Shown: positions 20,451 to 62,097 of the stretch, one piece after another
Layout: each line of letters begins with the position of its first letter
How positions within the stretch are numbered: the first letter of the stretch is position 1
Assembly (NCBI GenBank): GCA_051362555.1
Contig: CM120648.1
Coordinates: 10,164,587 to 10,228,586 of the forward strand
From: Lingula anatina
Taxonomy: Eukaryota; Animalia; Brachiopoda
Direction of reading: 5' to 3'
Length of the DNA: 64,000 bases
Position numbers and translations under genes: made by a program
Notes under the pieces: model-generated
What the model was told of the DNA's origin: nothing
Database searches by the model: none
What the model saw: the letters and a program-made list of their open reading frames with translations, nothing else

Positions 20451-23400
20451 GGATCGTGACAGTTCGTCATCAGGATTACCCTCACTCGTCACCACTGCTT
20501 TCCGTCCATACTCTTTGGCCTGAAAAAATAAAAGACAACATCGACTGCATTTTTTTTTCTTCTTTTTTTTTTCCATTATGCATCATGCATCATAATTTGT
20601 GTCATTTAAAATACTTTTATAACGATATAGGTCAAATTTGTAAAATATATAAATGTATATTTTTAAATATAATTGTCAAAATAATCCAAAAATGTTTGTA
20701 AAAAATGAAAACATCTTAATATTTTCTTTGCAATTATTGCTTCACAGATAACATTTTCTAATCAAGAAAGAGCTTTTTATAGGAAGTATTAGTAATACCA
20801 AAGTAAAATGTTGTTAAAGCATGTCAAGCATGAAAAAAAAAAACACATCACAGAATCATTGTGCCCCTTTTAAAAATTTTTATCCTTCTGAGCATACCTT
20901 CTCCACTTCATGTAGTATAAAATACAGCATAGCCAAAGCATGGCAAATTTTGGCAACAATTTCAGGTTTTTTATTTGACTGTTGATCTCTGATGTCATAT
21001 ATGGCATTTAGGACCTGTTTGGCTTCTGCTTCCTGGGCCTCATCTAAAATATATGTTAAAAATAATTAGAAAATATCATGATAAATGGTTGACAGTGTCA
21101 TTCCAACTGCCAGTCAGATAGGATAACTATAACTAAGTTATATACTATTATACCCCTACAGTACTTTAAATACCTTGAGAAAGATAATCAGGAAAAAATC
21201 TTTCCCAAAGTGCACTGCAGTAAGTATTTGAAAATAACAGATCTTAAAAAATAAATAGATAAATTATATATATAAAATAAAATAATGTAAAAAAAAAAAC
21301 TTATATTGGAAAATATAGGGTGTATGAAAATTTTAAGATATTACAGCACATAAATGTCAAAATGGCAGGATGGTGTAGAGCAAACTCACAGACATGCTTA
21401 TGAAAGGAGGCCAACAGGCCACTGATGGACAATGGCAAAATCTATTCATTCATATAAATGTCAAATACCACAGACACGAATTTCTAGTCAGTTAACAACC
21501 ACTCACCCAACCCCTCCTCTTCCTCTTGGTTTATCTCCATGGCAATGGCTCCAATTCCTGTTGTATCTATGGGTGTGGCTGTTCGAACACTGACTATCTT
21601 TTGTAAGTAGTCATACCAGCTATCTGTGACCTGGAATGTACACAATATCACAACTAAAGCAATTTTCAGTGATCACACCTGCCTAGCTATGGCCTGGAAT
21701 GTGCACAATATGACAACTGAAGTAGTAACTGTTGTATCTCGCTGACATGTAATGAGAGCCATTGTGTGAATGTAATAAAATTTTGGCAATGAGGGAAAAA
21801 AGCACAACTAAATATACTACCACAATTACTACTACTACTACAGTAATTGCAACCACTACATTACTACAGTAACTGCTACTACTGCTGCTTTTACTCCTAC
21901 TACTACTAATAATACTTCTACTAAAAAATAATGATAATATACAGAGAGTCTACTACTTCAGTTTGTATGAAAAAAAAAAAACAACTATATTTTTTAAGAC
22001 TTAATCTAGCATACATAGAGTGTGCTACTTCTGTTCTGTCTAAAGAAAACTTTCTATAGACTTACCCTAGCATATAGAGAGTCTGCTACTTCCATTCTGT
22101 TTTGTCTAAAGAAAACATTTGCCATGTGGAAATATCCGCCACTTGTCCTAATGTCATCTGGGGAAAACTCCATGGAGGCATGGAAAATCTGGAAAAAAAA
22201 AGGTGTAAATTGAGATCTAAAACAGTCCAATTTACTTGTTTGCTACTTACACTGCAATAAAATTGCAATGTTGTGTATAGCTGATGGCTGCAGAAACTGT
22301 ACATATAAGCAGCATATCTGATATGTTAAAGGTTTATTGCAATGTTGTGTATAGCTGATGGCTGCAGAAACTGTGCATATAAGCAGCATATCTGATATGT
22401 TAAACACCCTTTCAAATAATCCTCACAAAATTTAACACAACCTGCACTCACAACTCAGATCTTTTAAAAATCCTCAAACATAATTAGTGCATTCAGAACA
22501 ATGGACTTACAGATCTGCAGATCAAAAATTGCTGATCCACTTGAATGCTTGTTGCGTAAAACCCATGGGGAATCTGCCAGTGTCTGGCAGGAATTAAGTG
22601 GGAAGCTTTTTTAGTGTGTTGGCATATTTGATCCATGGATCTGTTAGTCTGCAGTTCTGAATGCGCTCAATGAGAAATCACAACCAGCACAATTGGAAAA
22701 TCTCAACTAACACAATTGGGAAAAAAACTCACATCATCAGCTAACTGCCTCAGAGACTCCTCATACTCCCCCTTGGCAGCATAGAGCAGTCCCAGGTTCC
22801 TGTACAGTTTGGACTTGATGGCATCTGAGCACTCTGGGGTCTTGACCACTGTCCACTGTGCCTGCATCAGGTATTCCTCTGCCTGGGATAGTCTACCTAA
22901 ACCTGGGGTGAGGGAAGGATTTTTGGAGATAATTGGATGTCCAGTTGTGATAACTTATACTAATAAATGTTTTTTTTTTTATTTATATCTATTAATACTT
23001 ACAATGTCATTCAAGAGAAGTTCACTATGGAGAAGTCCTCCTTGTGAAGACAATGTTGACCAGGAGGACTAGAGTTCTAGAGTTTCATCCAGTTCTATGC
23101 CAGCTAAACCATAAATTTCTATAGCAAATCACAGCACTCACCTATACTGGCCTCTCCCAGTATTAAATATGAAGGCACCAGTTCTATGCTAGCCAATCCA
23201 TGGACTTCTATAGCAAATCTCAGTGACTGCATTGCAGCTGGAACAGCTTGCTCATGTCTTCCCTCAAACAAAAGCTTCTGCCCTGTTGTTCTTGTCAGAT
23301 CTATCATGTGTCTCTGAAATTAAGATATTTTCTATGTTAAAACATGTCAAAAATACCACTCTGAATCACACCATTATTATTATTCTTTTAATTCCAAAAA

Positions 23401-38720: not shown

Positions 38721-39633
38721 TCTCACTTGAAAAGAGAACATTCCAGATCCACTTTCACATTGAACTGTCCATCTTCTCTGGTTTCTTTCTTCTCCACTAC
38801 ACCCCCAAACTCCTTGTTCATCATCTGGAATATAGATATTACAGTCACTGTTAAAACTCACTGAATTCAAATAAATTTTTATTTTTTTGGCCAAAAAAGT
38901 CATTTTATACAAAATATCAAGAGAAAATGACGGGAAAACTTTGTAAATCGGGTGAAACAAAGGTATTGGGTAAAAAATCAATGAAGTTTTCACACCTCAT
39001 CAAAAATAAAATCATTGATAATCTGGACTATAAACAGATTTAACTGTAAATAAATGGAACATACATGCAAACCATAGCAAATTCCTAGGACTGGTAGTCC
39101 ACAGTGAAATATTTCTGGGTCATATTTAGGAGCATCTTCATCGTTGACAGAACTAGGGCCTCCAGATATGATGATGGCTCTGAAAAATAAAAATCCGATA
39201 TTTTAATTATTACTCCACAGTACAAGTAATTATTTTTGGATCACTGCAAGCCTTTTATCTGTCATTTTAACTTCTAATAATAATATAATATCATTATCAT
39301 ACATTATTAGATTTATCCAATACACCATTCTCATTATTCGTCAATAATTACTTTTGGATACTAGTAAATATTAGTCTGTTATTCTCACTTAATATAATAT
39401 TATGTTCATAACACATTCCTATTTTTAATTACCAGAAACATTTGATAGATGATAAAGAGAGAAAAACCTCACACAAAAGGTAAAAAGCTAACACACAAAC
39501 AAGTCAACAGGTAAAAATCCTTACTTGTATCCAGTCTCCTTCAGTGCAAAAGCTGGGGTATCCAGGGGTAGGATGACAGACTCCACACACAGTTCTCTCA
39601 CTTTACGGTCTATTACCTGGAAAGTGATTAACT

Positions 39634-39693
<60 letters not shown>

Positions 39694-39828
39694 GTGTCAT
39701 TACAATTTTACAATAATTATCATTAAGCATTACAGAAGTGAAACAGTTTATTCCTTGGAAATGAGTAATAAAATAAGTTATCATAATACTAACGGTTATC
39801 ACCGTCATTACATTGTTATATTTTTCAC

Positions 39829-39874
<46 letters not shown>

Positions 39875-40402
39875 CAGATGACTGAGATCTTTAGACTAGA
39901 AAGGGATTTAATACACAGTTTTTTAGCCACAAAATTTTCTCTTTAGCAAAAGACAAACATTTCAGCGCATCAAAAAATTATTTGTATTAGTAAGTGGTTC
40001 ATCTGTACAAACAACACTTCAGGTTAGTAACTGAATAAATAAACACAGCTCTATGGAACACCTGTTCTCTATCAGCTCTCGGGTTTCTAAAAATACTCCT
40101 ACAGGAAAAGCAGTTTATTAATAGCACAACTTCCAGCATTGTAAACAACATGCACTGGAAAGATCAATCACATGGGGCCTATTTTGCAAGAGAACTAGAG
40201 ATAACAATTTGGGCTGAAGATTTTTTTACTTAGACAGATATTCTAGTCAGCTTCTGTACTAGTAGAAATGTGTAGTGGTCAAGTAAAATGTTTCTCTTGT
40301 TATAAAACAGGTGTTATTTATTTCATCTTTAGAATCAGACCACCTCTGTGCTACTTACTTTAACACAACATATCTATGTGTACATGCATGCACGAGCACT
40401 GT

Positions 40403-40450
<48 letters not shown>

Positions 40451-40572
40451 TACATTAAGTTTAACCTCACCTTTCCATACTGAGCCCCAGCGTCCAGTAT
40501 TGCCACAGTGTCTGTATGCTGCTCAAGTAGATCTCCATTCACCTGAGCTGCAAGCACCTCCCCACCATTCAT
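32192..40572 (-). CDS. GMPS: GMP synthase (glutamine-hydrolysing), 17 coding exons plus a non-coding first exon near 41741-41790
   Basis: First coding exon 40471-40572 (MNGGEV...[10 protein letters not shown]). Motifs [85 protein letters not shown]. All junctions GT-AG and in phase. Confidence 0.98.
36036..36130. repeat. Imperfect hairpin / small MITE relic in a GMPS intron
   Basis: ACCCCGAG..AGAGGTCACT...GCCTCT pairs with AGAGGC...AGTGACCTC..CTCAGGGT. Confidence 0.6.
38659..38718. repeat. (GT)n(GA)n microsatellite; others: (AT)n 19933-19984 and 27223-27279, (AAAT)n 23590-23645, (AAT)n 39636-39693, (ATT)n 39829-39873, (CA)n 40404-40447, (GA)n 46446-46479, (CT)n 56572-56615
   Basis: Directly visible simple repeats. 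Confidence 0.95.
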
Positions 40573-41740
40573 TCTGCTACAGCACAATGTAGTACCAATT
40601 GTCCTACGTGATACATACAGAAACAATAGCATTAACAGTACAATGAATATACAGTGTATTTTTACAACTGTTTCACTGGCCCTGATTCTCAGGATTTCTT
40701 AGCCTGTCATTCTGCTATGTGCAGCACAATATGTGATAAACAATAACATTATTAACTATTTACAATGAATCTATATATACTGATGTTACTATGTCTCTCA
40801 GGCATTAGCATCTCTTTGCAGAATATATACAGTAATACAGCAATTGTTAATACTCTGTGATAAATACAATTTGTCAATGAATCTATAGTAGTGTTACAAT
40901 AATGACTTTGCTTATGCCATTCATTCTGCTACTGGTACAGTTTTTATAACATGGAGTCCCAATAATTGCCTGCATGTCTGATAAGCATCAAAGCAATTAC
41001 GATTTCTGTAATAATGCCGAATGCCAATAACACTAAACGGGTTATATCACTATTTGTAGGTCGTTAAGAGTACAATAAATATTTAGACTGCCCTAAGTAA
41101 GAGAGGCCTGATAGTAACAATGGTGTAACTAAAAAGAATTACATGGTTATTCCCATGTACATTAAAAGAACTTTTCAATTTTTTTTTTTGTTTCTGCCCA
41201 TCAGTGCTACTACGTACAGTACTAGTAAACAAGTTCCAGAATGCAATTGCATTGTGCGTAACTTAAGTACAAAAGTACTGCATAAGCTCATTATTTAGCA
41301 TAGGCATATCACAGACATACACACACACACACATACAAATACAGAGTATGAGGGGGGAGAGAGGGGGCGGTACTGTAATTTGGTTTGACATTGAAAGTGA
41401 AACTGCCTTTCATATCTTAATTTCCAATGCCAAAACTCACGTTAGCCAAAACATCGACGACCTCTGTAACAATCCGAGATGTAATTAGAAGTAATTATGA
41501 GTAATTTCACGCAATGGGAGCACTGTCGCTGCTTGCTGCAGTCGTGAAGATTGCACTGCACTCGTTGACATTAAACCAGCACACACACGTGAGAAACATG
41601 ATCAACAATAACAATGTCCATTTCTCCGCAGAACAACTAATCATTTTAAAAATAATGATGAAATTATCCTAGGATAATGCATTTCAACATAAATCAAACG
41701 TCACAGCATCAATGTGAGGAGGCGTAATTAAAAAACTTAC

Positions 41741-48196: not shown

Positions 48197-51100
48197 TCAC
48201 ATTTCCAGTAAACCCAGCTGCTTAATTGCCTTAAATTGATCCGGAATTTCCATCAGAGCAGCCAGCGCAAAAGCAGCCTGTGGATTCCTTGCGTCCCTCA
48301 TGGCTAAATTAAAGTCAACAAACTGAAAGTTATCAAACCGTCTCTGTGGAATGCTGTCATCGAATTCTTTCATCATGTCCCACGGGCCATCCCCCACACC
48401 AATCATAATGATTGACAGTGGGTATTGTGCCGCCTCCACAATGGCGTGACGTGTTGCCTGCTCATTGGTTACTTGACCATCTGCCACAATGACCAGGATG
48501 TGGTACTACAAATAAATAAATTTTATATCCAATAAATAAATAAATAACGAATAAATAAATAAATAATTCATATCTAATGTATTCATATAATCAAAATCTT
48601 AAATTGCTTCATTTGCTTCGATGTATGTCTGATTCTTTAAGATGTAACATTTTTCATTTTTATAAAAGCAATTCTTCATCAATAACTGAAACTCTACATA
48701 GCATATATGCTCTCAGTAATAAGTTAAAACATCCATCAGACCCATACCATACCTAGTCAAAAATCATTGTCTTGAATGATCTATATATTTAATTTATTAA
48801 GAATGACTGAAGCAACAAATATGAAACAATATAAAAAAAAGTTATGACTGCAGTGCTATAATAGAAAGCCACCTACTGCTTTGGTTTGCCTGACAATCTC
48901 CAGCGCCCTGCGGATCAAGGGGGCAAAGTTAGTTGGTCCACTTAGCTTGACATTTGGGGTAATCTGGTTATATGCCTGGAGCGCATCATGGAAACCAGTG
49001 CAATATCCCTGAAACAGTTACAAATCACGTCAAAAATGTCCCAGATAAACATGGTTTTTACCATATCTAATCTCCGGGATACTGATCGAGTTTGATTCAT
49101 CTGACACAAACTGATAAATCCTTTGTAAAATAAAACTGTGAATATACACATGCATACACAAATAATAAATGCATAATTTAAAAAATGAAAATATTGTAAG
49201 ATAAGACAGTGAAAAGAGCAACATCTTTTTTCTTTAACCAATTTTCACCTTTCAGGTACAGAATGTCTTGTTTGACAAATCTAGTAACATCAATAATGTT
49301 GTCATTTCGATCACTTTCTATTAGCGCATTCAGATCAGTGGACAAACAGATCCGCGCATCAAATATGAAGACCCACTTAGAAGTTTGTGCTCTAATTTTC
49401 CTAAAGACAATGAATAGACTTCCTGCAGGGATTATGCAACAAGCATTTGAGTGGGTCAGTTATATTTGATCCGAGGACTAGTTAGTCCACTGTTGTGAAT
49501 GTGACTGCAATATTACCTCTGCTCTAAAAGGAAAAACTCCAGTTCCTCTGGTAGACTGGTCACCAAAACCAAACACTGGTATTATGCCATCTTCATCAAA
49601 TGGCTCTATGGTCTCTCCCAAGATACTGATCACCTGAAAGTACAGAGAACAATGCTGTCCTGTCTTGTATACAACACCACCTGGTGGTTAAAACCCTTAA
49701 GAGTTTCCATTAAAATCACAATAAATGAATAAATAGATGATTAAATAAGTTAGAAAAAAATCGTGAAAAATACAAGTATTATAACAGTCAAAATTATAGA
49801 GAAATCAAAAAAAAAAATCCAACCTCTAAAAGATAACATACATGTACATGTAGTTTTTACTTTATTTTATCTGGAAATGTGACGATAAGCATAATATCAC
49901 ATAAATAAAAGGTATTCCAGAAATATGAAAACTATCAGATTTGTGCAAGAAGAAAGGCTCATGGATGGATACGATAAGTTTCATAGTCCAAACTTCAAAA
50001 GAGAAGGATCTCATACTAAGAAATGCAAGTATCTGTACACAACACCCTATAGGCTTGTTTGTGGAACATGATAAAAGGAAGGCATAGCGAATAATGTGGC
50101 TGTGCAAATTGAAAATATACATGTGCATTTTATAGGTAAAATTTACTTTCTAGGGCTAAAGTGACATGATGGGAAGAATTCAAGCACGTATTGGTTGATT
50201 CATTAAGCATGACAGAAACACAATAATATATACAGCCACAAAGCAGGGGCAGATCCAGAGATATTTTCTGACAGTCTTCCAAATTATCTTCGTTGATCCA
50301 TCCTCCATTTTTGACCGTCTTCCGACAGAAAACATTATATGCCTGACAATGTAAACTTGAAAATCTGACCGTCTTCCGGAAGACCCAGAAGACGGCCTAA
50401 ATCCGCCCCTGACAAAGCACCCTTTATGTCCCATGTACTTCAAATGTGAGGGGGGTGGTAGTTTGCACTGTTTCTTAAAAGAACTTCAGCCCAAAATTTT
50501 GGTCAACTGCCATATATAAGAGTCCACCTAAATGAAGTTACCATAGGTCTGACTCATTTCTATCCACAGATAACTGTATGGGGTCAAATCAGACTTAAAT
50601 TTTAATCTTAAGATTCAGACCAATTTTTTTTGGCTAAAGCTCTTTTATCAAACAGGCTCAGGTTATGCATTGAATTAAACAACTATTATAATAATAAGCA
50701 AACCATAGCTTAAAAAACACAGTGGAAATTCCCTTTAACACATGGAGCACATTCAGAAAAGCGAACTAACAGATCTGGGGATCAAATATGGGGACTCGCT
50801 AAAAAGCTTGCCACTTAATTCCCAATTAGACACTGAACAGATTTCCCAAGAGGATTACACAACAAGCATTCAAGTGGATTGGCCATATTTGATCTGCGGA
50901 TCTGTTAGTCCACTGTAATTAATGAATGGGCTCTTAACTCTTCGTGATCGAAAAAGAGAAAGATGTGAAAGCACATCATGCAAAGCTCTACAAGTACCTG
51001 TTGATAAGGATTTACAGCACCCGGACCCATATAATGCAGACATCTCCCCCCAAATGTTCTCTGGCCTTGAATATTGTTACTAGCTGTGTAATCTACACCT

Positions 51101-52463
51101 GGAAAGATTACAGTAAGTGTTCTCTTAATCTGAACAAAATTTTTATAATGTCTTTTTTCCAAAATAAAAATGTTATGTTAGTACAATAATAACTGGAAAA
51201 AAGTGGCTTGGTAGTTCTGAAAATCAAGGATCACAGTAAATTTTGAAAAATGAATGAAATTAAATGAAAATTAATGGTGTTCAAATTTCTGAGTATTCAC
51301 TATACTGTAACCCAGACCCATATTGTAGATGTAAATCATAGAGAGCAAACTGAATTATATATGAAGAATTAAGAGGGACATGTGTCATGCAGAGAGAAGA
51401 CACACTACTGCAGATCAGGATTACAAGACATTTAGAAGTTAAGCGGATAAAACTCCCTCTCCTTTTTATGCTTCTTCTTGTTATCATTACTATTTTGAAA
51501 AGGGGGGGGGGGGGGGCGTGCAGTGCAAAGAAAATATCTGCCATAAATGGTTCTATTAGGAGCAATTTGCAGGCCTGACTATGTGGCACATGTGTGTGTG
51601 GGGCCTCATTCACTATGCATCTTTTCACCACTTTTGGAAAATAACCATGCCAGATCTGCATTTGACAAACTATGAAGTTTTTTTTTCACGTGGTCTCTAG
51701 ATAGGATGATCCAAGTTTTAACAACTAAGTCAAACTATAGCCACTTCAAAAAGACAATAACCCTGTTATATGTTTGACTTTTTAAAATAATGCATCCATC
51801 AATAAGCAGATGTGTGATCTTTATTACCAAAAAAAAAAAATGTCACCTTAATATTTACCTGTTGATAAGGGTTAAGAAGATCAGGGTACAGACCATGAAG
51901 AGCTCGACCTCCAAAACTTCTCTGTCCCTGGGCCAGGTTACTCAGGGTGTAATCAATACCTACCAAATATGGGCAAAGAATTCTTACTAACAGAACCTTA
52001 ACCCAAATATGGAAAAAGACCCCTTTCCAAATATAGCCAAACATCACAGTTATATAAAATTATCTATTTATAATATATTTATATTATATGAAAGAATGTT
52101 TAATATGAAAGGACAGTCTGAGGATGTAATACCTTTACAAGATGTGGGGGAATGAAGTGAGGAAATATGAAAATGAGGAGTCCTTACTACAGTACGTATA
52201 TGGGGCATGTATGGTACAGGCCAGTAAGACAAGTACACATATACTAGCTTTTTTGCTAAAACCAGCTCTTCACTATACTTCAGATGGAAGATGTCACACT
52301 GAGATCAAACATACCCTGTGACAATGCCTTTATCTAAATTTTAATAGTTTTACAAAATTTGCCCTCTAAAGTTTTGATATTTTAATAACAGGTAAAATGC
52401 CTACCATGGCTTGTTAATTAGCAGTGATGTTTTGTATATCTTTTTTTTTTTTTTTTTTATTTA

Positions 52464-52494
<31 letters not shown>

Positions 52495-53260
52495 GGGGGG
52501 GGTCTTTTTTAGTTGTGGGTTCTGACTTTTCAAAACAAGTTTTATATACACATTTTAAGACTGGTTTAGTAAAAACTGACCAAATAAAGTTGCAAACATA
52601 TGAGGTTAAATCACACAAAATACTACTGTCACAACAAACACAACTTCAAGGTTACTAGTACAACTACTAGCAGGTTTTAAAACTCTGTGAAAAAATTAGA
52701 ATGTGTTATTAAGTTAAGAGCCTTGAACACCAGCTTGGAACATGTATTTTTAAAGCAGAAAGACGTTCTTTAAAAAAAGCAGTGAATATTTTTTAATCAT
52801 TCTAAGCATAACCAAGCTGACGATAACTGAAATTTACTTGTTTCAACGACAAGTAACTTGTTACTGCTTGGGATTTAAAGAACCTCCTTTCTTAAAAAGG
52901 CTCACTTAAACACTCACCAAAAATCAAATTACAGGATTCCAGCCCTGCTTTCCTAATTGCCTCTGTGACTTCTTCCAGCGAGGTAAAGCGATCACGGATG
53001 AGTCTGATGTCATCCACTCCAAAATAGTTCAGCACAGAGTTCCGTCTAGTTTCCTGGTTAAGGTCAGGGTAGAGTCCTGACCCTGACCTTTGCTGATTTT
53101 CTCTTTTCCGGTTTCGCCTGTTGCGTGATCTACAGCAGAATACATAGACGAGTAATCCCACAGTGGCAAATATGAAGATGTTGCCAAGGTTAATGTGGTA
53201 TTTGTCTTCTACATAGTCCCTCAAGGAATCCATGGCTCCAACCAGACTGTGCCTCTTCAT
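48197..53260 (-). CDS. Copine-family vWA-domain protein with an N-terminal transmembrane helix and no C2 domains (CPNA/RGLG-like), ~333 aa, two isoforms
   Basis: Exons 52918-53260, [51859-51959 OR 50998-51098], 49517-49633, 48877-49008, 48197-48505. Motifs [10 protein letters not shown][IV][79 protein letters not shown] segment [16 protein letters not shown] is followed by a basic stretch. Start could be 53260 or 53233. Confidence 0.92.
50244..50411. mobile_element. hAT-like MITE (168 bp) with 6-bp TSD
   Basis: ACAAAG|CAGGGGCAGATCCAG ... CTAAATCCGCCCCTG|ACAAAG. Confidence 0.85.
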
Positions 53261-56621: not shown

Positions 56622-59600
56622 CTGAAAACCTACTAGTAGTGAGCTTGACTCATATTCACTTATTCAAAATCATGTTAGTCATGATTATTTCCCTGAAAAA
56701 AGAAGACAAAAAGAAGCTCATATATATCAAAGTAAAGAGCCTTTATTAACTAAAAAGATAATTGTGTACTTTTTTTACAGGTCAGCTTATAGCCACAGGA
56801 TCAGGAGATGCCTCAATAAAAGTAAGAAAACATGGCTTCAAAATGACAGAAATTATTTCTGATCCATATTTGTCCTTGACTGATCCCTCAGTAATTTTCC
56901 CATCTGCCTTAAGACATTTTTGTCTAGTTATATACAAAAGAGAAATGATATACCAACCAACTGCACCTAATCCTGAATCTCTTGAAATGAATTTGTGTGA
57001 GTTAAACAAGTTTTATATAAGGAAAAATATGATAAACAGGGAAAATTACATGGCCTGGGAGAAAAAGTTTGTTATCTGCTGCACAACAAAATGTTCAGTC
57101 AGTAAAGTAAAATGACACCTTGCATTTGTAACACTTGGCCCGTGGCAGCAGTCATAGATTTTTTCCCATGCATTATATGTAATTTTTTTCATTTCAAATG
57201 CAAAATTTTACTATTTTTCTTTTGAAACATGTGGCAGTAATTTCACTTAATTATTTAATAAGATATCCGCGCATAAAGTAGCTTAACAATAGAGTTAGAC
57301 AGTCAAGGGGGGAAATAAGAAGCGCCATATGAATGAATGCATTACTGTACCTTGTTGGTTTCTTTGAGTGCATTCAGAAAAGAGATCCAGGGATCATATA
57401 TGGCAACCCACTTAAAAGGTTGTTGCTTAATACTGGATTAATACTGAATAGATTCCACGCGGGGATTACGCAACAAGCATTCAAGTGGATTGCCTGTATT
57501 TGATCCTCAGATCTGTTAGTCCACTGTTGTGAACACGCTCTTTCTGTTAGATTCTAGATGTGGAACGTATGCTAGCCAAGAGTGCCATACCGGCTGACCA
57601 GATGGCGCAGGAGACCCCCCAACAACAGATGGAAAACCACCCTGTCATTAGAACTCTGTACGACCACACTGATGTGAGTAATACTGTCATGGTTTGTTAG
57701 ACTTTTTGATTGCCCTGTTTATGAAAGGTAAACTGGAAGTCACATTTGCCTATAGTGCACAGAGAGGATTTTTTGCTGAAAAGAGATAAAAGACTGTTTA
57801 TGTGTCTGTCTGTACATCTGTCTGATTTGTCTGTCTGTTTGTTTGTCTGCCTGTCTGTCCATCCATCCCTTTCAGTATCATCAATTTGTCTGTCTGTCTA
57901 AAGTGCATTTCTTTCTGTGTCTGTTACATTTCTGTTTGTCTGCCTATCTGATTTGTCTGCCTTTCTGTAGGTCCGATATTTGTTTTTTTTTTGTCTGCCT
58001 GATTTGCCTGTTTATATGCCTGTATGAATGTTTGATTTATCTATTCTCTGTCTGCCTGTTTGTGTGTCTTTCTGTTTGATTTGCCTGTTTGAACATTCTG
58101 TGAGCATTTGTTTCTGGTTATCATTCAGTTTGTCAGACATACATACAAACAAACATGCAGGAAGTACTGTATATTTAAATTTTACAGTGAATGACAATAT
58201 AAGATTCTCTCTTTTTTTCATTGTATTCAAAGAAATATAAAATATAAGTTTTATTTCCAAAAAGGTACACAAAACACATTATGTTCTTGTTAATTTTTGA
58301 AGACAAAAATTATTTTGTAATAACTTAATAAATTATATGTTATCCTAATCTGTAAACTTTTTAACTATTCAAGTTGATCTTATATTATTATTTAAATCAT
58401 TACAGGAGGTGACATGTGTAGATTTTCACCCCTATCGCCAAGTCCTGGTCTCGGGCAGCAAAGATTATGGTGTCAAATTCTTCGAATTTTCAAAGCCATC
58501 TGTGAAGAAGGCTTTCAAAAGTATCCAAGAGGCCTCTCCTGTACGATGTTTGAATTTTCATCCTTCTGGCGACTATCTAATTGTTGGAACCCAGCATCCG
58601 ACAGGTGATAACAAAAACGCACTAAACTCAGTACAGGCCACTTACTGGTATTCAAAAAAAAAAAAAAAACACAAAAAACAACTAAGATTAATAATTACTT
58701 TGTTAAATATGACATCTATATATTAATGTTAGAAATTTAATCTAAAACAAGGCTTCAAATTCCCCTTTTACTGTGTAATTATATAATTATATATGCAGAT
58801 GACAATATTAAACATGATTTTCAAAAAAATATGTAACAATATATTTTTTTTTTAATGTCCAGCTTGTGTATTTATTATATTCAATTTGGTGATCCTTGTC
58901 TTATATGTAAAGATTTAGAGCAGGCCTACCCAACTACCAGACTCGGCACCTAAGGATCCTGAATTAACCGGTATATCGGACCACACTACCCGTTTTCAAG
59001 GTGTGTGTCAGATCGCATTTCGGAGTATCAGCCAGAACACCGACAAGATGAGCCCTGACATGCTCGGCTGTCACCTTGATTGGATAGTGAACGATTGTCG
59101 TAAAATCGCTATATGATTTTAAAACCGGGTGCATAATTTTGAAAGCCACCTAGATGAACCTTAGACTGCCACATTAATCTAATACAATGCAAAAAAGCCC
59201 TATCAAAAGTGGTTAAAACATTCAAACCGAATGTCGTAAAGTCCCCATATACCCCCATAGAGACAATAAAATAGAGTACTCTAAAGTAAGAGTACAGTTT
59301 AAGGTTGTTCAGCCGAGCGTGGATGAGCCCGGCTACAAAATTTGCTCTGGGGGATGATACTCCGAAATGCGATCTGACACACACCTTGAAAACGGGTAGC
59401 GTGGTCCTATATACCGGTTAATTCAGGATCCTTAGGTGCCAAGTCTGGTAGTTGGGTAGGCCTGTAGAGGCTCAGTCACTTGATACTTGACATTACTTCA
59501 TAAATTGATATATCTTTAACCATGATAAATAGATTAAATAAATCAAATTTTCTGATTGGTTTGTCATCTGGAATTTGCCAGATGGATCCATGTGGTGCAC

Positions 59601-62097
59601 AAGTACATAATATTTATTATTTTTTAGTGCGCCTTTATGATGTGAATACATTCCAATGTTTTGTTGCCAGCAATCCCAAAGAACAACACACAGCACCTGT
59701 TACAAGTGTGAGTATGGATTATTTATTTATTTATTTATTTATTATTATTTAAACAGTCCTTTGCAGTGACTGACATAGAAGGTAAAATATTCAGCAAAAT
59801 AATTTTCAAACATATTTTAAAAAATAAAATATTTTAAAAAATAAAATATTTGAAAAAATATTTACTTTGACTGACAGTGAATTATGAAAAAAATCTATTA
59901 CCTCTTTAATGGCACTTTTGACTGTTTTCTTCAGGTCGTAGTGGCTAGTGGAGTCTTTGGACAATTTTTGTGAAAAAAAAATTGATGGTTTGTCCAGTGA
60001 TATCCTCAATAGATACACTGGTTTCTAAATTAAAGGATTCAGTGCATTTATTATATTGATATCAGTCTGAATTTGCTTATTACAGTATATTTATTTATTT
60101 ATTTATAATTCTTCATTACAGGTGAAGTGGAGTCCGTGTGCTAAAATGTATGTATCATCTTCTAAAGATGGAGATTTGAAGCTGTGGGATGGCGTCAGTA
60201 ATAAGTGCGTCAACACTTTCAAACGTGCCCATGACGGACATGAGGTGTGCTCTGCTGTCTTCTCAAGGAATTCTAAGGTGAGGAAAATGAAAAAAAAATC
60301 GGGGATTTTTTGCACTGGTCCATTTGACCAGTCATTTAAAAGGTATAAGCCTCAATGTTGTTATCTTTTATGTTTTATGTTTTTCACATGCAGTGCAAAG
60401 AAACATAGATTTTATATGATAATAAACATAGATTTTATCTTCTCCTAGCATTTTGCATACCAGGGTCATTTCTTCCACAGAAGGCGTGGACCTAAAGTTA
60501 CATATGAAGTACCATATGAAATACCAAAAGACAATGTTTAATATTACCTGAAAAATGATATTTGAACAGATTTTTCTTTTAGTTCTCTATGCTGTATATA
60601 AATGTGGCAAACAAGTAAGTCAGATGGATGGGTCAAATTTACAACCCAAAATCTAAAGAAAGGAGATGTTTAAGGCTCTTCTATGGCTGATCTAGTGATT
60701 CATTCAGTTTATCCATTGACATGTTGACTTTATTTGAGTCGTATAAGAAATTTAATTTAGTAGAAGAGGTTTATATGCATTACTAAGAATCCACTCTCTA
60801 TCAACTCTCCATTCTTATGTACTTTTAATATGTTTGTTTCAGTATGTATTAACTTGTGGTAAAGACTCCCTTGTGAAGCTCTGGGAGCTGTCTACCTCCA
60901 GGTGTCTTATAGCCTACACAGGGGCAGGGACAACAGGCAAAATGGAGCACAGGACACAAGCAGTCTTCAATCATACTGAGGATTATGGTGAGGGATATAC
61001 TGGTGTACATAGGGCGCTGTCATGTCTAACATTTTATCACCTGGAACACCCTGACTAAATGTCACCTGTAATACACTGTTATATCCAACGCACTGCCACA
61101 CCTAACACACTGTCACATCTCACCGTGTGTTACTTGCAACAAATTCTTATATACAACACACTCACACAGTACACAATATCACATAGAAATGCGCTTTTGC
61201 AACCAACATCCTGTAACACTTAATATCATTTTTACACTGTTTTGGTTATGTTTTGGATAGGTATCAGACATGCACACTCATGCACACACACATGCAAATG
61301 CATGCACAAACGGACAAGAATACAATATCTTGTATCTTTCCACAGTGTTATTCCCTGATGAGGCCACCACTAGTTTGTGTTGCTGGGACTCTAGAAATGC
61401 TGACAGGCAAAAGCTTCTTGCTCTCAGTGAGTTTTATTATTATTTTTATTATATATAATGCAAATATTGTTACCATCACTGGCCAAAATGTTTCTTTATC
61501 CTAGGGCTTTAACTACCAAACAGCATATTTGAGTACTTTCAATTTTTTGCTTCAATTTGGTATTAATGCAGAATAAATTTCTAATTTTTGTATCAATTTT
61601 AAAACCTTTTACCTGTCATGTAAAATTTGGTCAATTTGGCCTGGCAGTGATATGGAAATTATTATTATGCTTATTTTATTTTATTACCTCCGCCAAGGAG
61701 GTTATGTTTTCACCCCTGTTTGTCTGTCTGTCTGTTTGTTTGTCATCAACATAACTCAAAAAGTTATTGACTGATTTTGATGAAATTTTGTTACAAATAT
61801 GTTATCTTATAAGTGATTAGTTATTGGTGGTGATCCGGATCAATAATCAATCAATAATCAATCATAATCAAAATTGCTGACTTGGCGGAGGTTTGCGCTC
61901 TTGGAGTGCTTTTCTAGTTTTATTTTATTTTATTTATTTTATTTTTTATTCCTTTAAATTTATGATGCTCTCATCGATTATTTTCAGGTCATAACAATGT
62001 AATACCTTGTATCGTTCACTCCCCCACTGGCCCCGCCTTCCTGACATGCAGCGATGACTTCAGAGCAAGGTTCTGGTACAAGAAAGCTTTGGACTAG
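54597..62097 (+). CDS. CSTF1: Cleavage stimulation factor subunit 1 (CstF-50), 12 exons
   Basis: Exons 54597-54652, 55305-55432, 55746-55823, 56456-56548, 56781-56821, 57551-57673, 58406-58604, 59628-59707, 60122-60277, 60843-60987, 61346-61426, 61988-62097. [19 protein letters not shown] dimerisation domain, [22 protein letters not shown]40 repeats, [11 protein letters not shown]. Confidence 0.98.
56243..56347. repeat. Inverted-repeat hairpin / MITE relic in CSTF1 intron 3
   Basis: AGCTTACGGCCAACCTGGA ... TCCAGGCTGGCCGTAAGCT. Confidence 0.75.
57800..58140. repeat. Degenerate (GTCT/GTTT/GCCT)n tract
   Basis: Visible low-complexity repeat; explains the spurious Cys/Leu-rich ORFs here. Confidence 0.85.
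58921..59464. mobile_element. Young MITE (544 bp) with ~108-bp TIRs and 5-bp TSD in CSTF1 intron 7
   Basis: TAGAG|CAGGCCTACCCAACTACCAGACT...CGGAGTATCA ... TGATACTCCG...AGTCTGGTAGTTGGGTAGGCCTG|TAGAG. About 3 mismatches between arms. Confidence 0.95.
61681..61919 (+). mobile_element. Non-autonomous Helentron/DINE-like element
   Basis: TTATTACCTCCGCCAAGGAGG start, (GTCT)n tract, sub-terminal inverted repeat CTTGGCGGAGG, 3' hairpin GCGCTC-TTG-GAGTGC, then TTTTCTAGTT, inserted in a T-rich site. Confidence 0.85.

Follow-up and report, generated by a model that had tools for sequence, protein, structure and literature searches.

Duplicated alternative exons exchange residues around the metal site of a predicted membrane-anchored copine-type protein in Lingula anatina

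Introduction

Partner recruitment by copine vWA domains is generally attributed to their MIDAS metal site, and what sets the specificity of this recruitment is little understood. A copine-type gene of the brachiopod Lingula anatina, located on the minus strand of the window (the whole 64-kb stretch of DNA that was analyzed), carries a pair of similar exons, A and B, in the region encoding such a domain. The question raised by this locus is whether both exons are used and what a choice between them would change in the protein. The original prediction proposed that the two exons are mutually exclusive and swap the MIDAS-containing segment of a membrane-anchored protein.

Results

The first coding exon (52918..53260, minus strand, as are all features of the gene) has its ATG at 53260, contains the beginning of the vWA domain, and ends in phase 1. 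It corresponds to residues 1-114 of the RefSeq protein, with the exception of residue 89, and exhibits RNA depth as well as joints from 52918. Exon A (51859..51959) encodes residues 115/116-148, including Ile116 and Leu120, and exon B (50998..51098), separated from A by a GT-AG intron of 760 nt (51099..51858), carries Val116 and Ala120. Constitutive exon 3 (49517..49633, 117 nt) carries D161 and D163, which correspond to the Ca site NCBS2 of RGLG1; constitutive exon 4 (48877..49008, 132 nt) carries the MIDAS residue T213; and the last coding exon (48197..48505, 309 nt including the stop) carries the MIDAS residue D240 and the NCBS1 equivalents D280, D289, Q292, and E317. The coding sequence with A alone or B alone comprises 1002 nt and 333 aa. 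RefSeq carries both forms, isoform X2 (XP_013388486.2) with A and isoform X1 (XP_023930422.1) with B, and the A/B splicing event is therefore already annotated; a second RefSeq locus for the gene, XP_023931723.1, was seen with exon A only.

Both coordinates and translations agreed with the prediction of two homologous 101-nt exons, each preceded by AG and followed by GT, with equal phases. A and B share 66 of 101 nt and, counted after the split first codon, 21 of 33 residues. When A was used as a tblastn query, B was retrieved at E 5.5e-12, whereas the next match within the 64-kb window had an E value of 0.21, indicating that the A-B likeness is beyond chance; no third copy of the exon was found in the window by this search. 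The introns flanking A and B exhibited no extended similarity, the best local match being 18 nt. A Nei-Gojobori comparison of the 33 codons yielded pS 0.60 and pN 0.27 (dN/dS ~0.29, Fisher p 0.004). These values support the proposed old duplication under purifying selection.

We examined RNA joints in Lingula anatina runs X1, X2, X4, and X7 (four of nine raw-read runs listed for the species), which are without tissue labels and of which 6-25% each was aligned; 15 of 31 joints were listed, with 2-11 reads per junction. The results revealed splicing of exon 1 to A and to B, and of A to exon 3. Joint 52918>51959 (exon 1 to A) had 10 reads in run X7, and joint 52918>51098 (exon 1 to B) had 2, 7, and 6 reads in runs X1, X2, and X4, giving A:B counts at the exon 1 junction of 10:0 in X7, 0:6 in X4, 0:7 in X2, and 0:2 in X1. 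Joint 51859>49633 (A to exon 3) had 11 reads in X7 and 2 in X1; this joint and that from exon 1 to B skip one exon each. Joint 49517>49008 was present in X2, X4, and X7. Three of the four junctions named in the original prediction were thus seen in the reads: 50998>49633 (B to exon 3) was absent among the 15 of 31 joints listed, and the RefSeq isoform X1 model has this join. No A-to-B joint was seen among the same 15 of 31, at low depth.

The use of A and B differs between the RNA samples. The exon-bin depth was 8.0 for A and 0 for B in X7, and 0 for A and 2.2 for B in X4. The difference in exon choice between these two runs had a Fisher p of 1.2e-4, or 1e-3 by distinct read starts; the two runs come from different studies, with reads several percent divergent from the window, and what looks like regulation could therefore reflect population differences or loss in mapping.

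The evidence supports A and B being tandem-duplicated exons that are probably mutually exclusive. As predicted, including both or neither disrupts the frame: with A and B together, a stop occurs at codon 150, 347 nt upstream of the last junction, and with both skipped, at codon 127, 214 nt upstream of it. Such transcripts would be removed by nonsense-mediated decay, in which case the frameshift would enforce one exon per mRNA. The choice itself is presumably regulated by tissue or stage. Steric exclusion of neighboring exons has a limit of roughly a 50-60 nt intron, and the 760-nt intron between A and B is too long for it; this mode was ruled out. U2/U12 incompatibility was also rejected, the donors GTAAATAT and GTACTTGT being unlike the U12 donor consensus. 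The best Dscam-type docking duplexes for A and B (-28.9 and -28.3 kcal/mol) were each equalled in 2 of 25 shuffles, so that the one upstream of A is not beyond chance, and the partner arm of the A duplex lies inside a repeat that folds locally into a stronger hairpin (-41.5). The 60 nt next to the acceptors of A, B, and the last constitutive exon contain no canonical YTRAY branch motif, and because the motif is missing at the constitutive acceptor too, its absence near A and B says little.

The predicted architecture of a transmembrane segment followed by a copine vWA domain was upheld by hydropathy, a modeled helix, and a Pfam match. The predicted transmembrane helix (53132..53188, about residues 25-43) has a Kyte-Doolittle 19-mer mean of 2.21 at residue 25, and this mean exceeds 1.8 in all 39 named animal homologues; the AlphaFold models of both isoforms place a helix at 25-46. 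According to the positive-inside rule, the basic side of a membrane helix is cytoplasmic. A Cys-Cys pair and a basic run follow the predicted helix, which suggests that the vWA domain faces the cytoplasm. Pfam Copine (PF07002) scored 214.8 and 221 bits in the two isoforms against a cut-off of 27 (E 1.4e-63), and the Pfam scan of both isoforms contained no C2 family. The protein begins MKRH, with no N-terminal glycine for myristoylation, and stops directly after the vWA domain, with no C-terminal RING. A LYPDL motif lies in the linker by sequence (53060..53074, residues 63-67), and LYPxL occurs in 16 of 39 named homologues. Another LYPDL lies in exon A; as a mechanism this copy was dropped because it is missing from every other species' exon and because the X7 reads alter its last codon (51879 G>C).

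The closest solved relatives are the vWA domains of Arabidopsis RGLG1, RGLG2, and RGLG5 (PDB 6K89, 8HMH, and 8XT5), with an E value of 3.5e-79 by sequence and 50-53% identity by fold. The isoform A model superposes on RGLG1, a Rossmann-type vWA fold, with an rmsd of 1.1 A, and by this model the domain is an RGLG-type vWA. The gene product is an RGLG-type copine vWA protein that lacks C2 and RING domains and has one predicted membrane anchor.

The two isoforms differ at 12 residues in the surroundings of the metal site, which itself does not change. The MIDAS of RGLG1 consists of DxTxS, in the beta1-alpha2 loop and alpha2, together with T258 and D286 (PMC7155146). The RGLG1 alignment likewise places DxTxS inside the alternative exon, in agreement with the original prediction. 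The corresponding ligands D117, T119, S121, T213, and D240 are present in 24 of 24 isoform sequences, and the NCBS1 equivalents are identical in all 24; D117, T119, and S121 are the same in A and B, whereas T213 and D240 lie in constitutive exons. The claim that the MIDAS-containing segment is swapped consequently holds for the surroundings of the ligands, which are exchanged, but not for the metal ligands themselves, which are invariant between the isoforms.

The exchange alters the residue between T119 and S121, the helix that comes next, and the loop after it. Across 12 species with both isoforms, positions 116, 120, 124, 139, and 142 differ between isoforms in every species, whereas D117, T119, S121, N122, G126, L135, H136, and N144-Y146 never do. 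In 12 of 12 species, one isoform has Ala at residue 120 and the other a larger residue. By sequence comparison, variation is greatest at 137-143, a loop in the AlphaFold model, and the models of the two isoforms have nearly equal secondary structure. In RGLG1, NCBS2 lies almost opposite the MIDAS (PMC7155146). Because D161 and D163 lie at the C-terminal end of helix 145-160, the N-terminus of this helix and loop 137-143 would be at the MIDAS face. Residue 120, the beginning of helix 121-129, and loop 137-143 would line the ligand face, in keeping with the original prediction that the changes lie beside the metal site.

Isoform pairs differing only in the 33-residue block were found in 12 of 32 species compared, from three phyla: a brachiopod, a nemertean (ribbon worm), a chiton, scallops, and mussels, the 11 species outside Lingula being represented by gene models. 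In cluster look-ups, which may overlook an isoform assigned to a different cluster (this is true of Lingula itself) and do not prove absence, no such pair was seen in the other 20: seven gastropods (Littorina, Babylonia, three Haliotis, Biomphalaria, and Bradybaena), four other bivalves (Mercenaria, Mya, Ruditapes, and Sinanodonta), and nine deuterostomes (two Lytechinus, Strongylocentrotus, two Diadema, Amphiura, two Asterias, and Branchiostoma lanceolatum). Many relatives thus appear to manage with one exon. A Dreissena paralogue pair without the swap, two Batillaria proteins that differ throughout, cross-species pairs, and pairs of unnamed records were kept outside the count of 32. In four scallops, 28-32 of 33 residues are the same within an exon type and 14-17 between types in one species; with mussels included, within-type conservation is 28-33 of 33. 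A contrast of Ile/non-Ala with Val-or-Met/Ala at 116/120 recurs in the three phyla; its chance, estimated from 33 single-isoform homologues, is ~0.11 per lineage and 0.0013 for three, calculated post hoc.

Brachiopods, nemerteans, and molluscs last shared an ancestor more than 500 million years ago. We consider it probable, on balance, that the pair arose from one duplication before these lineages split, with later loss or disuse of one of the two exons in some molluscs. The best tree of 18 paired exons (33 columns) separates the I and V types with support of 62/78, and within molluscs the chiton, mussel, and scallop exons form two groups (86/87 and 83/87). Separate duplications of this exon in all three phyla or a subset of them, with convergent likeness at 116/120, would be less parsimonious, and we regard this alternative, which bears on origin only, as the weaker one. 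It nevertheless has evidence on its side, because AU tests rejected none of six alternatives to the I|V tree (p 0.12-0.33), Lingula-only (0.23), Lineus-only (0.33), and mollusc-separate (0.30) duplications included. The exon order is also reversed relative to Lingula in the two Mytilus models that have both exons, where the Ala120 type comes first, and one sequence each came from four named records of annelids and one of a bryozoan, counted by record rather than by isoform. After removal of the two class-naming columns, the Lingula-Pecten (p 1.0) and Lingula-Mytilus (p 0.62) contrasts were null, whereas the Lingula-Liolophura contrast, which argues against separate duplications, remained positive (p 0.02, uncorrected, one of 10 comparisons).

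Discussion

The reading that we favor, with a rough probability of 0.55, is that the splice choice keeps the ligands and the predicted fold, exchanges their surroundings, and likely retunes cytoplasmic partner docking at the MIDAS face. Choosing one of the two duplicated exons exchanges the residues around an unchanged metal site, and by analogy a different cytoplasmic partner may then dock on that face. An RGLG1-type Ca-dependent open/closed gate would work in both isoforms because the gate residues lie in shared exons.

Alternatively, the swap may alter the behavior of the domain (its metal affinity, open/closed equilibrium, Ca sensitivity, or stability) toward the same partner, yielding high- and low-threshold isoforms. 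Residue 120, which differs in all 12 species, lies between two metal ligands, and in RGLG1 an open/closed change shifts the metal relative to S166 and T258 (PMC7155146). We nevertheless consider this reading unlikely, since the equivalents of the RGLG1 allosteric elements (NCBS1, W331, and G287) are outside the swapped exon, NCBS1 does not vary between isoforms, and the most variable stretch is a loop. It is likewise unlikely that the isoforms are near-equivalent and that the pair is kept for cell-specific exon recognition or because nonsense-mediated decay of mis-spliced products throttles expression. The shared predicted fold, the 20 of 32 species in which no pair was seen, and the early stops of both-or-neither products would fit near-equivalence, whereas the separate conservation of distinct types in scallops and mussels and the repeated 116/120 contrast (post hoc) argue against it.

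The idea that only one isoform is real, the other exon being a copy in decay or a product of misassembly, draws on the second RefSeq locus with A only and on the B-to-exon 3 joint being absent among the 15 of 31 joints listed. It is largely refuted, because junction reads enter both exons, as the original prediction required, both are open with a low dN/dS, and the same pairing is modeled in 11 other species. The outcome that the original prediction named as its refutation, splicing of a single exon or loss or decay of one exon in related species, was accordingly not obtained.

The favored reading, a retuning of partner docking, has parallels in known systems. By hand mapping from the alignment, the Lingula protein shares with the RGLG proteins the MIDAS (DxTxS...T...D) and the NCBS1 and NCBS2 Ca-site residues; in contrast to them, it has neither a RING nor a Gly2 for myristoylation and has a predicted N-terminal membrane helix instead. 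The available text of the RGLG1 paper makes no mention of an alternative exon (PMC7155146). The canonical C2-C2-vWA copines (CPNE1-9 and BON1) share PF07002, and BON1 is a structural match; however, the Lingula protein has no C2 domains, and BON1 is a more distant match than RGLG (E 1e-21 versus 1e-79). With its predicted N-terminal transmembrane segment, copine domain, and lack of C2, it falls under the definition of an atypical transmembrane copine, as does Caenorhabditis elegans CPNA-1, which also keeps the MIDAS (PMC3583664). UNC-89 is bound by the copine region of CPNA-1 and by none of the six further copine domains of the worm (PMC3583664). CPNA-1 has 1107 aa with a long spacer, compared with 333 aa in Lingula, and its isoforms keep or lose the copine domain, whereas the Lingula isoforms swap part of it (PMC3583664). 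Two other nematode proteins fall in the same broad bilaterian group as the Lingula protein (85/91, unstarred) in a tree without CPNA-1.

The alternative-exon region of the Drosophila integrin betaPS lies in the beta I-like vWA domain. The alternative fourth exons of betaPS encode 29 residues of a part of the protein that has been linked with ligand preference (PMC9218073), and one laminin binds the betaPS4A form only (PMC2148222). As in Lingula, one of two exons of about 30 residues is chosen; in betaPS, ligand binding is reported to be splice-form-specific (PMC9218073, PMC2148222). These papers describe conservation of 4A/4B among other insects (PMC9218073, PMC2148222; Graner et al. 1998 as cited there), whereas the Lingula-type pair occurs in three phyla. 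The betaPS region belongs to an extracellular integrin head, in contrast to the predicted cytoplasmic copine vWA of Lingula.

The original suggestion that such a switch was undescribed in this family stands insofar as no report of it was found in open-licence papers, judged by their listings, although genome-wide MXE tables could list it; it does not stand for annotation, given that both isoforms are in RefSeq. The mechanism is of a known kind, and the instance is new and unusually widely shared.

An extended version of the favored reading, which we put forward tentatively and consider doubtful as a whole, is that one ancestral duplication gave rise to a tissue-regulated two-state switch, since kept in three phyla, of the ligand face of a membrane-anchored, Ca-gated intracellular MIDAS adaptor, with residue 120 (Ala or larger) as the specificity key. 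If true, this would be the equivalent, inside the cell, of the betaPS4A/4B switch in integrins and among the few splicing events shared across animal phyla. A pair of isoforms that are 12 residues apart around an unchanged metal site is a natural experiment for comparing partners. If the single origin is true, a protein-changing splice choice would be common to three phyla, which bears on the lifespan of alternative splicing events.

The exon pair and its splicing

As the original prediction held, two paired 101-nt exons were present on the minus strand, each with AG before and GT after: exon A at 51859-51959 and exon B at 50998-51098. The first coding exon, E1, occupies 52918-53260, and the constitutive exons occupy 49517-49633 (E3), 48877-49008, and 48197-48505, the last of these being the last coding exon; all are on the same strand. 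Exons A and B shared 66 of 101 nt and matched each other at E 5.5e-12 by tblastn, whereas the next match in the 64-kb window had E 0.21 and no third copy was found there. Synonymous divergence exceeded replacement divergence in the proposed comparison of the two exons (pS 0.60, pN 0.27, dN/dS approximately 0.29, p 0.004). These exons are a tandem-duplicated, apparently mutually exclusive pair.

Conceptual splicing of A alone or B alone gave an open frame of 333 aa. The anticipated frameshift was also observed: including both exons produced a stop at codon 150, 347 nt upstream of the last junction, and skipping both produced one at codon 127, 214 nt upstream. Nonsense-mediated decay usually follows a 50-nt rule, and both stop positions fit this geometry.

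Nine same-species RNA-seq runs were listed, of which four (X1, X2, X4, and X7) were mapped, at 6-25% of each. The E1-to-A junction (52918>51959) was covered by 10 reads in X7, the A-to-E3 junction (51859>49633) by 11 in X7 and 2 in X1, and the E1-to-B junction (52918>51098) by 2 in X1, 7 in X2, and 6 in X4; neither B-to-E3 nor A-to-B was among the joints listed (15 of 31). Exon-bin depth was concordant, with only B in X4, only A in X7, and both in X1 and X2. Both exons are expressed, in agreement with their predicted alternative use, and exon use depends on the sample. Exon use differed between X7 and X4 on small counts (Fisher p 1.2e-4; 1e-3 counting distinct starts), the two runs being from different studies, lacking tissue labels, and carrying reads that diverge several percent from the window. 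We infer that exon choice is regulated by tissue.

Judged against the thresholds for steric and U12-type exclusion, both mechanisms are disfavored because the intron between A and B is 760 nt long and the GT donors are ordinary. Pairing between RNA arms could draw on a 27-nt complementarity joining the region upstream of A to sequence downstream of B; this match was no better than chance (2/25 shuffles), and its partner arm falls within a repeat that folds locally into a more stable hairpin. The likely route left would be regulated choice of one exon, filtered by decay of frameshifted products. The B-E3 intron holds a repeat with 42-nt inverted ends at 50750-50924, and copies related to it occur at 49323-49493, 22498-22672, and 57380-57527; this repeat and that at approximately 50244-50411 attract many RNA reads originating elsewhere.

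Protein identity and neighboring genes

A last-exon query retrieved two 333-aa L. anatina RefSeq proteins at 100% identity, isoform X2 (XP_013388486.2, the exon A form) and isoform X1 (XP_023930422.1, the exon B form). The spliced translations equaled these proteins except at residue 89 (R in the window, S in RefSeq). A second RefSeq locus, XP_023931723.1, differs by three residues from the window protein (48197-53260, minus strand) and may be an unmerged haplotype.

The Pfam Copine match, well over the cut-off in both isoforms, and a predicted N-terminal hydrophobic helix, found in all 39 named animal homologues, supported the predicted membrane-anchored copine vWA protein. The Pfam scan detected no C2 or RING domain in either isoform, ruling out a canonical C2 copine and an RGLG E3 ligase. 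The nearest solved structures were plant RGLG vWA domains (E 3.5e-79), with the copine BON1 only at 1e-21, and AlphaFold modelled isoform A with a mean pLDDT of 88.8, superposing on RGLG1 at 1.1 Å rmsd. The protein's layout is that of Caenorhabditis elegans CPNA-1, described as a copine without C2 and with a predicted transmembrane segment (PMC3583664). On sequence grounds, the Lingula gene is an atypical transmembrane copine. A constant-part tree (51 rows) placed the protein inside a broad bilaterian group of weak internal resolution.

The linker that joins the membrane helix to the vWA domain is variable apart from LYPDL (53060-53074, minus strand), which we take to resemble the ALIX-binding LYPxL motif; LYPxL occurred in 16 of the 39 named homologues, in animals as far apart as brachiopod, starfish, and amphioxus, and a link to ESCRT sorting is possible. 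Divergent from the copine gene lies a gene with a Pfam WD40 match (56762-61504, plus strand) that resembles CSTF1/CstF-50. Exon-like frames at 39521-40698 (minus strand) resemble a GMP synthase start, judging by motif; the one frame scanned had no Pfam match.

Effect of the swap at the metal site

The RGLG1 MIDAS comprises DxTxS (162-166; beta1-alpha2 loop and alpha2), T258, and D286 (PMC7155146). Separate from the MIDAS are two Ca sites: NCBS1, where Ca dictates the open versus closed state, and NCBS2, which is nearly opposite the MIDAS. Mapping by hand from the structure-search alignment gave the Lingula equivalents D117, T119, S121, T213, and D240 for the MIDAS, D280, D289, Q292, and E317 for NCBS1, and N111, D161, and D163 for NCBS2. 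These were identical in 24/24 isoform sequences, except that N111 was Ser in both chiton isoforms. The predicted swap of a MIDAS-containing segment held in that DxTxS lies inside the exon, but the ligands are unchanged and only their neighbors differ: D117, T119, and S121 are the only mapped residues in the exon and never differed between isoforms, whereas positions 116, 120, 124, 139, and 142 did so in 12/12 species. At residue 120, which is flanked by two metal ligands, one isoform of each pair had Ala and its counterpart had Leu, Ser, or Val.

In AlphaFold models of both isoforms, secondary structure was nearly identical, and the exon ran from the end of strand 110-117 through helix 121-129 and a long loop into the first turn of helix 145-160. 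Because NCBS2 is nearly opposite the MIDAS and lies at the distal end of helix 145-160, loop 137-143 probably lies on the MIDAS face.

Distribution and origin of the pair

Annotated isoform pairs were compared for 32 species, using protein models, a comparison that misses an isoform placed in a different cluster. Two equal-length proteins differing only within the swapped block (11 to 19 residues) were found in 12: Lingula, the nemertean Lineus longissimus, the chiton Liolophura sinensis, four scallops, and five Mytilus. No swap was seen among the annotated pairs of the other 20 (7 gastropods, 4 heterodont or unionid bivalves, and 9 deuterostomes). Judged from these models, the swap is common to three phyla. 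Between scallop species, 28-32 of 33 residues were kept within one exon type, whereas the two types inside one species had 14-17 in common, so each type is under its own constraint. Unionid records P0001, P0003, P0006, and P0134 carry two or three tandem copine domains, which probably reflects either a local expansion of the gene or the merging of models, and oyster models P0053 and P0279 include a fused short-chain dehydrogenase.

A tree built from 43 exon peptides divided the mollusc exons into two groups (86/87 and 83/87, unstarred), each containing chiton, mussel, and scallop; gastropods and clams joined the Ala120 type (exon B-like; Val116/Ala120 in Lingula), and oyster and ark-shell joined the other (exon A-like; Ile116/Leu120 in Lingula). 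With the 18 paired exons only, the best tree split the two types (support 62/78), and AU tests rejected none of six alternative topologies (p 0.12-0.33). The 116/120 contrast recurred in three phyla with a post hoc chance of approximately 0.0013, which common origin and convergence fit equally. Simple orthology is disfavored because exon order is reversed: the Ala120 type comes first in two Mytilus models (P0065 and P0077) that wrongly contain both exons in tandem, and second in Lingula. We lean toward a single origin of the pair as the likelier history.

Meaning of the exon switch

The exon pair is real and expressed, RefSeq already annotates it, and its mechanism class is familiar; listings of open-licence papers yielded no account of this gene, nor of a comparable switch in copines. 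The swap resembles that of Drosophila betaPS integrin exons 4A/4B, which encode alternative stretches of 29 residues within a region connected with ligand preference (PMC9218073) and for which laminin binding specific to splice form is reported (PMC2148222). By this analogy, the swap may alter partner specificity, at slightly better than even odds (roughly 0.55). What is new here is the recurrence of the switch in three phyla and the constancy of the metal ligands while neighboring residues switch.
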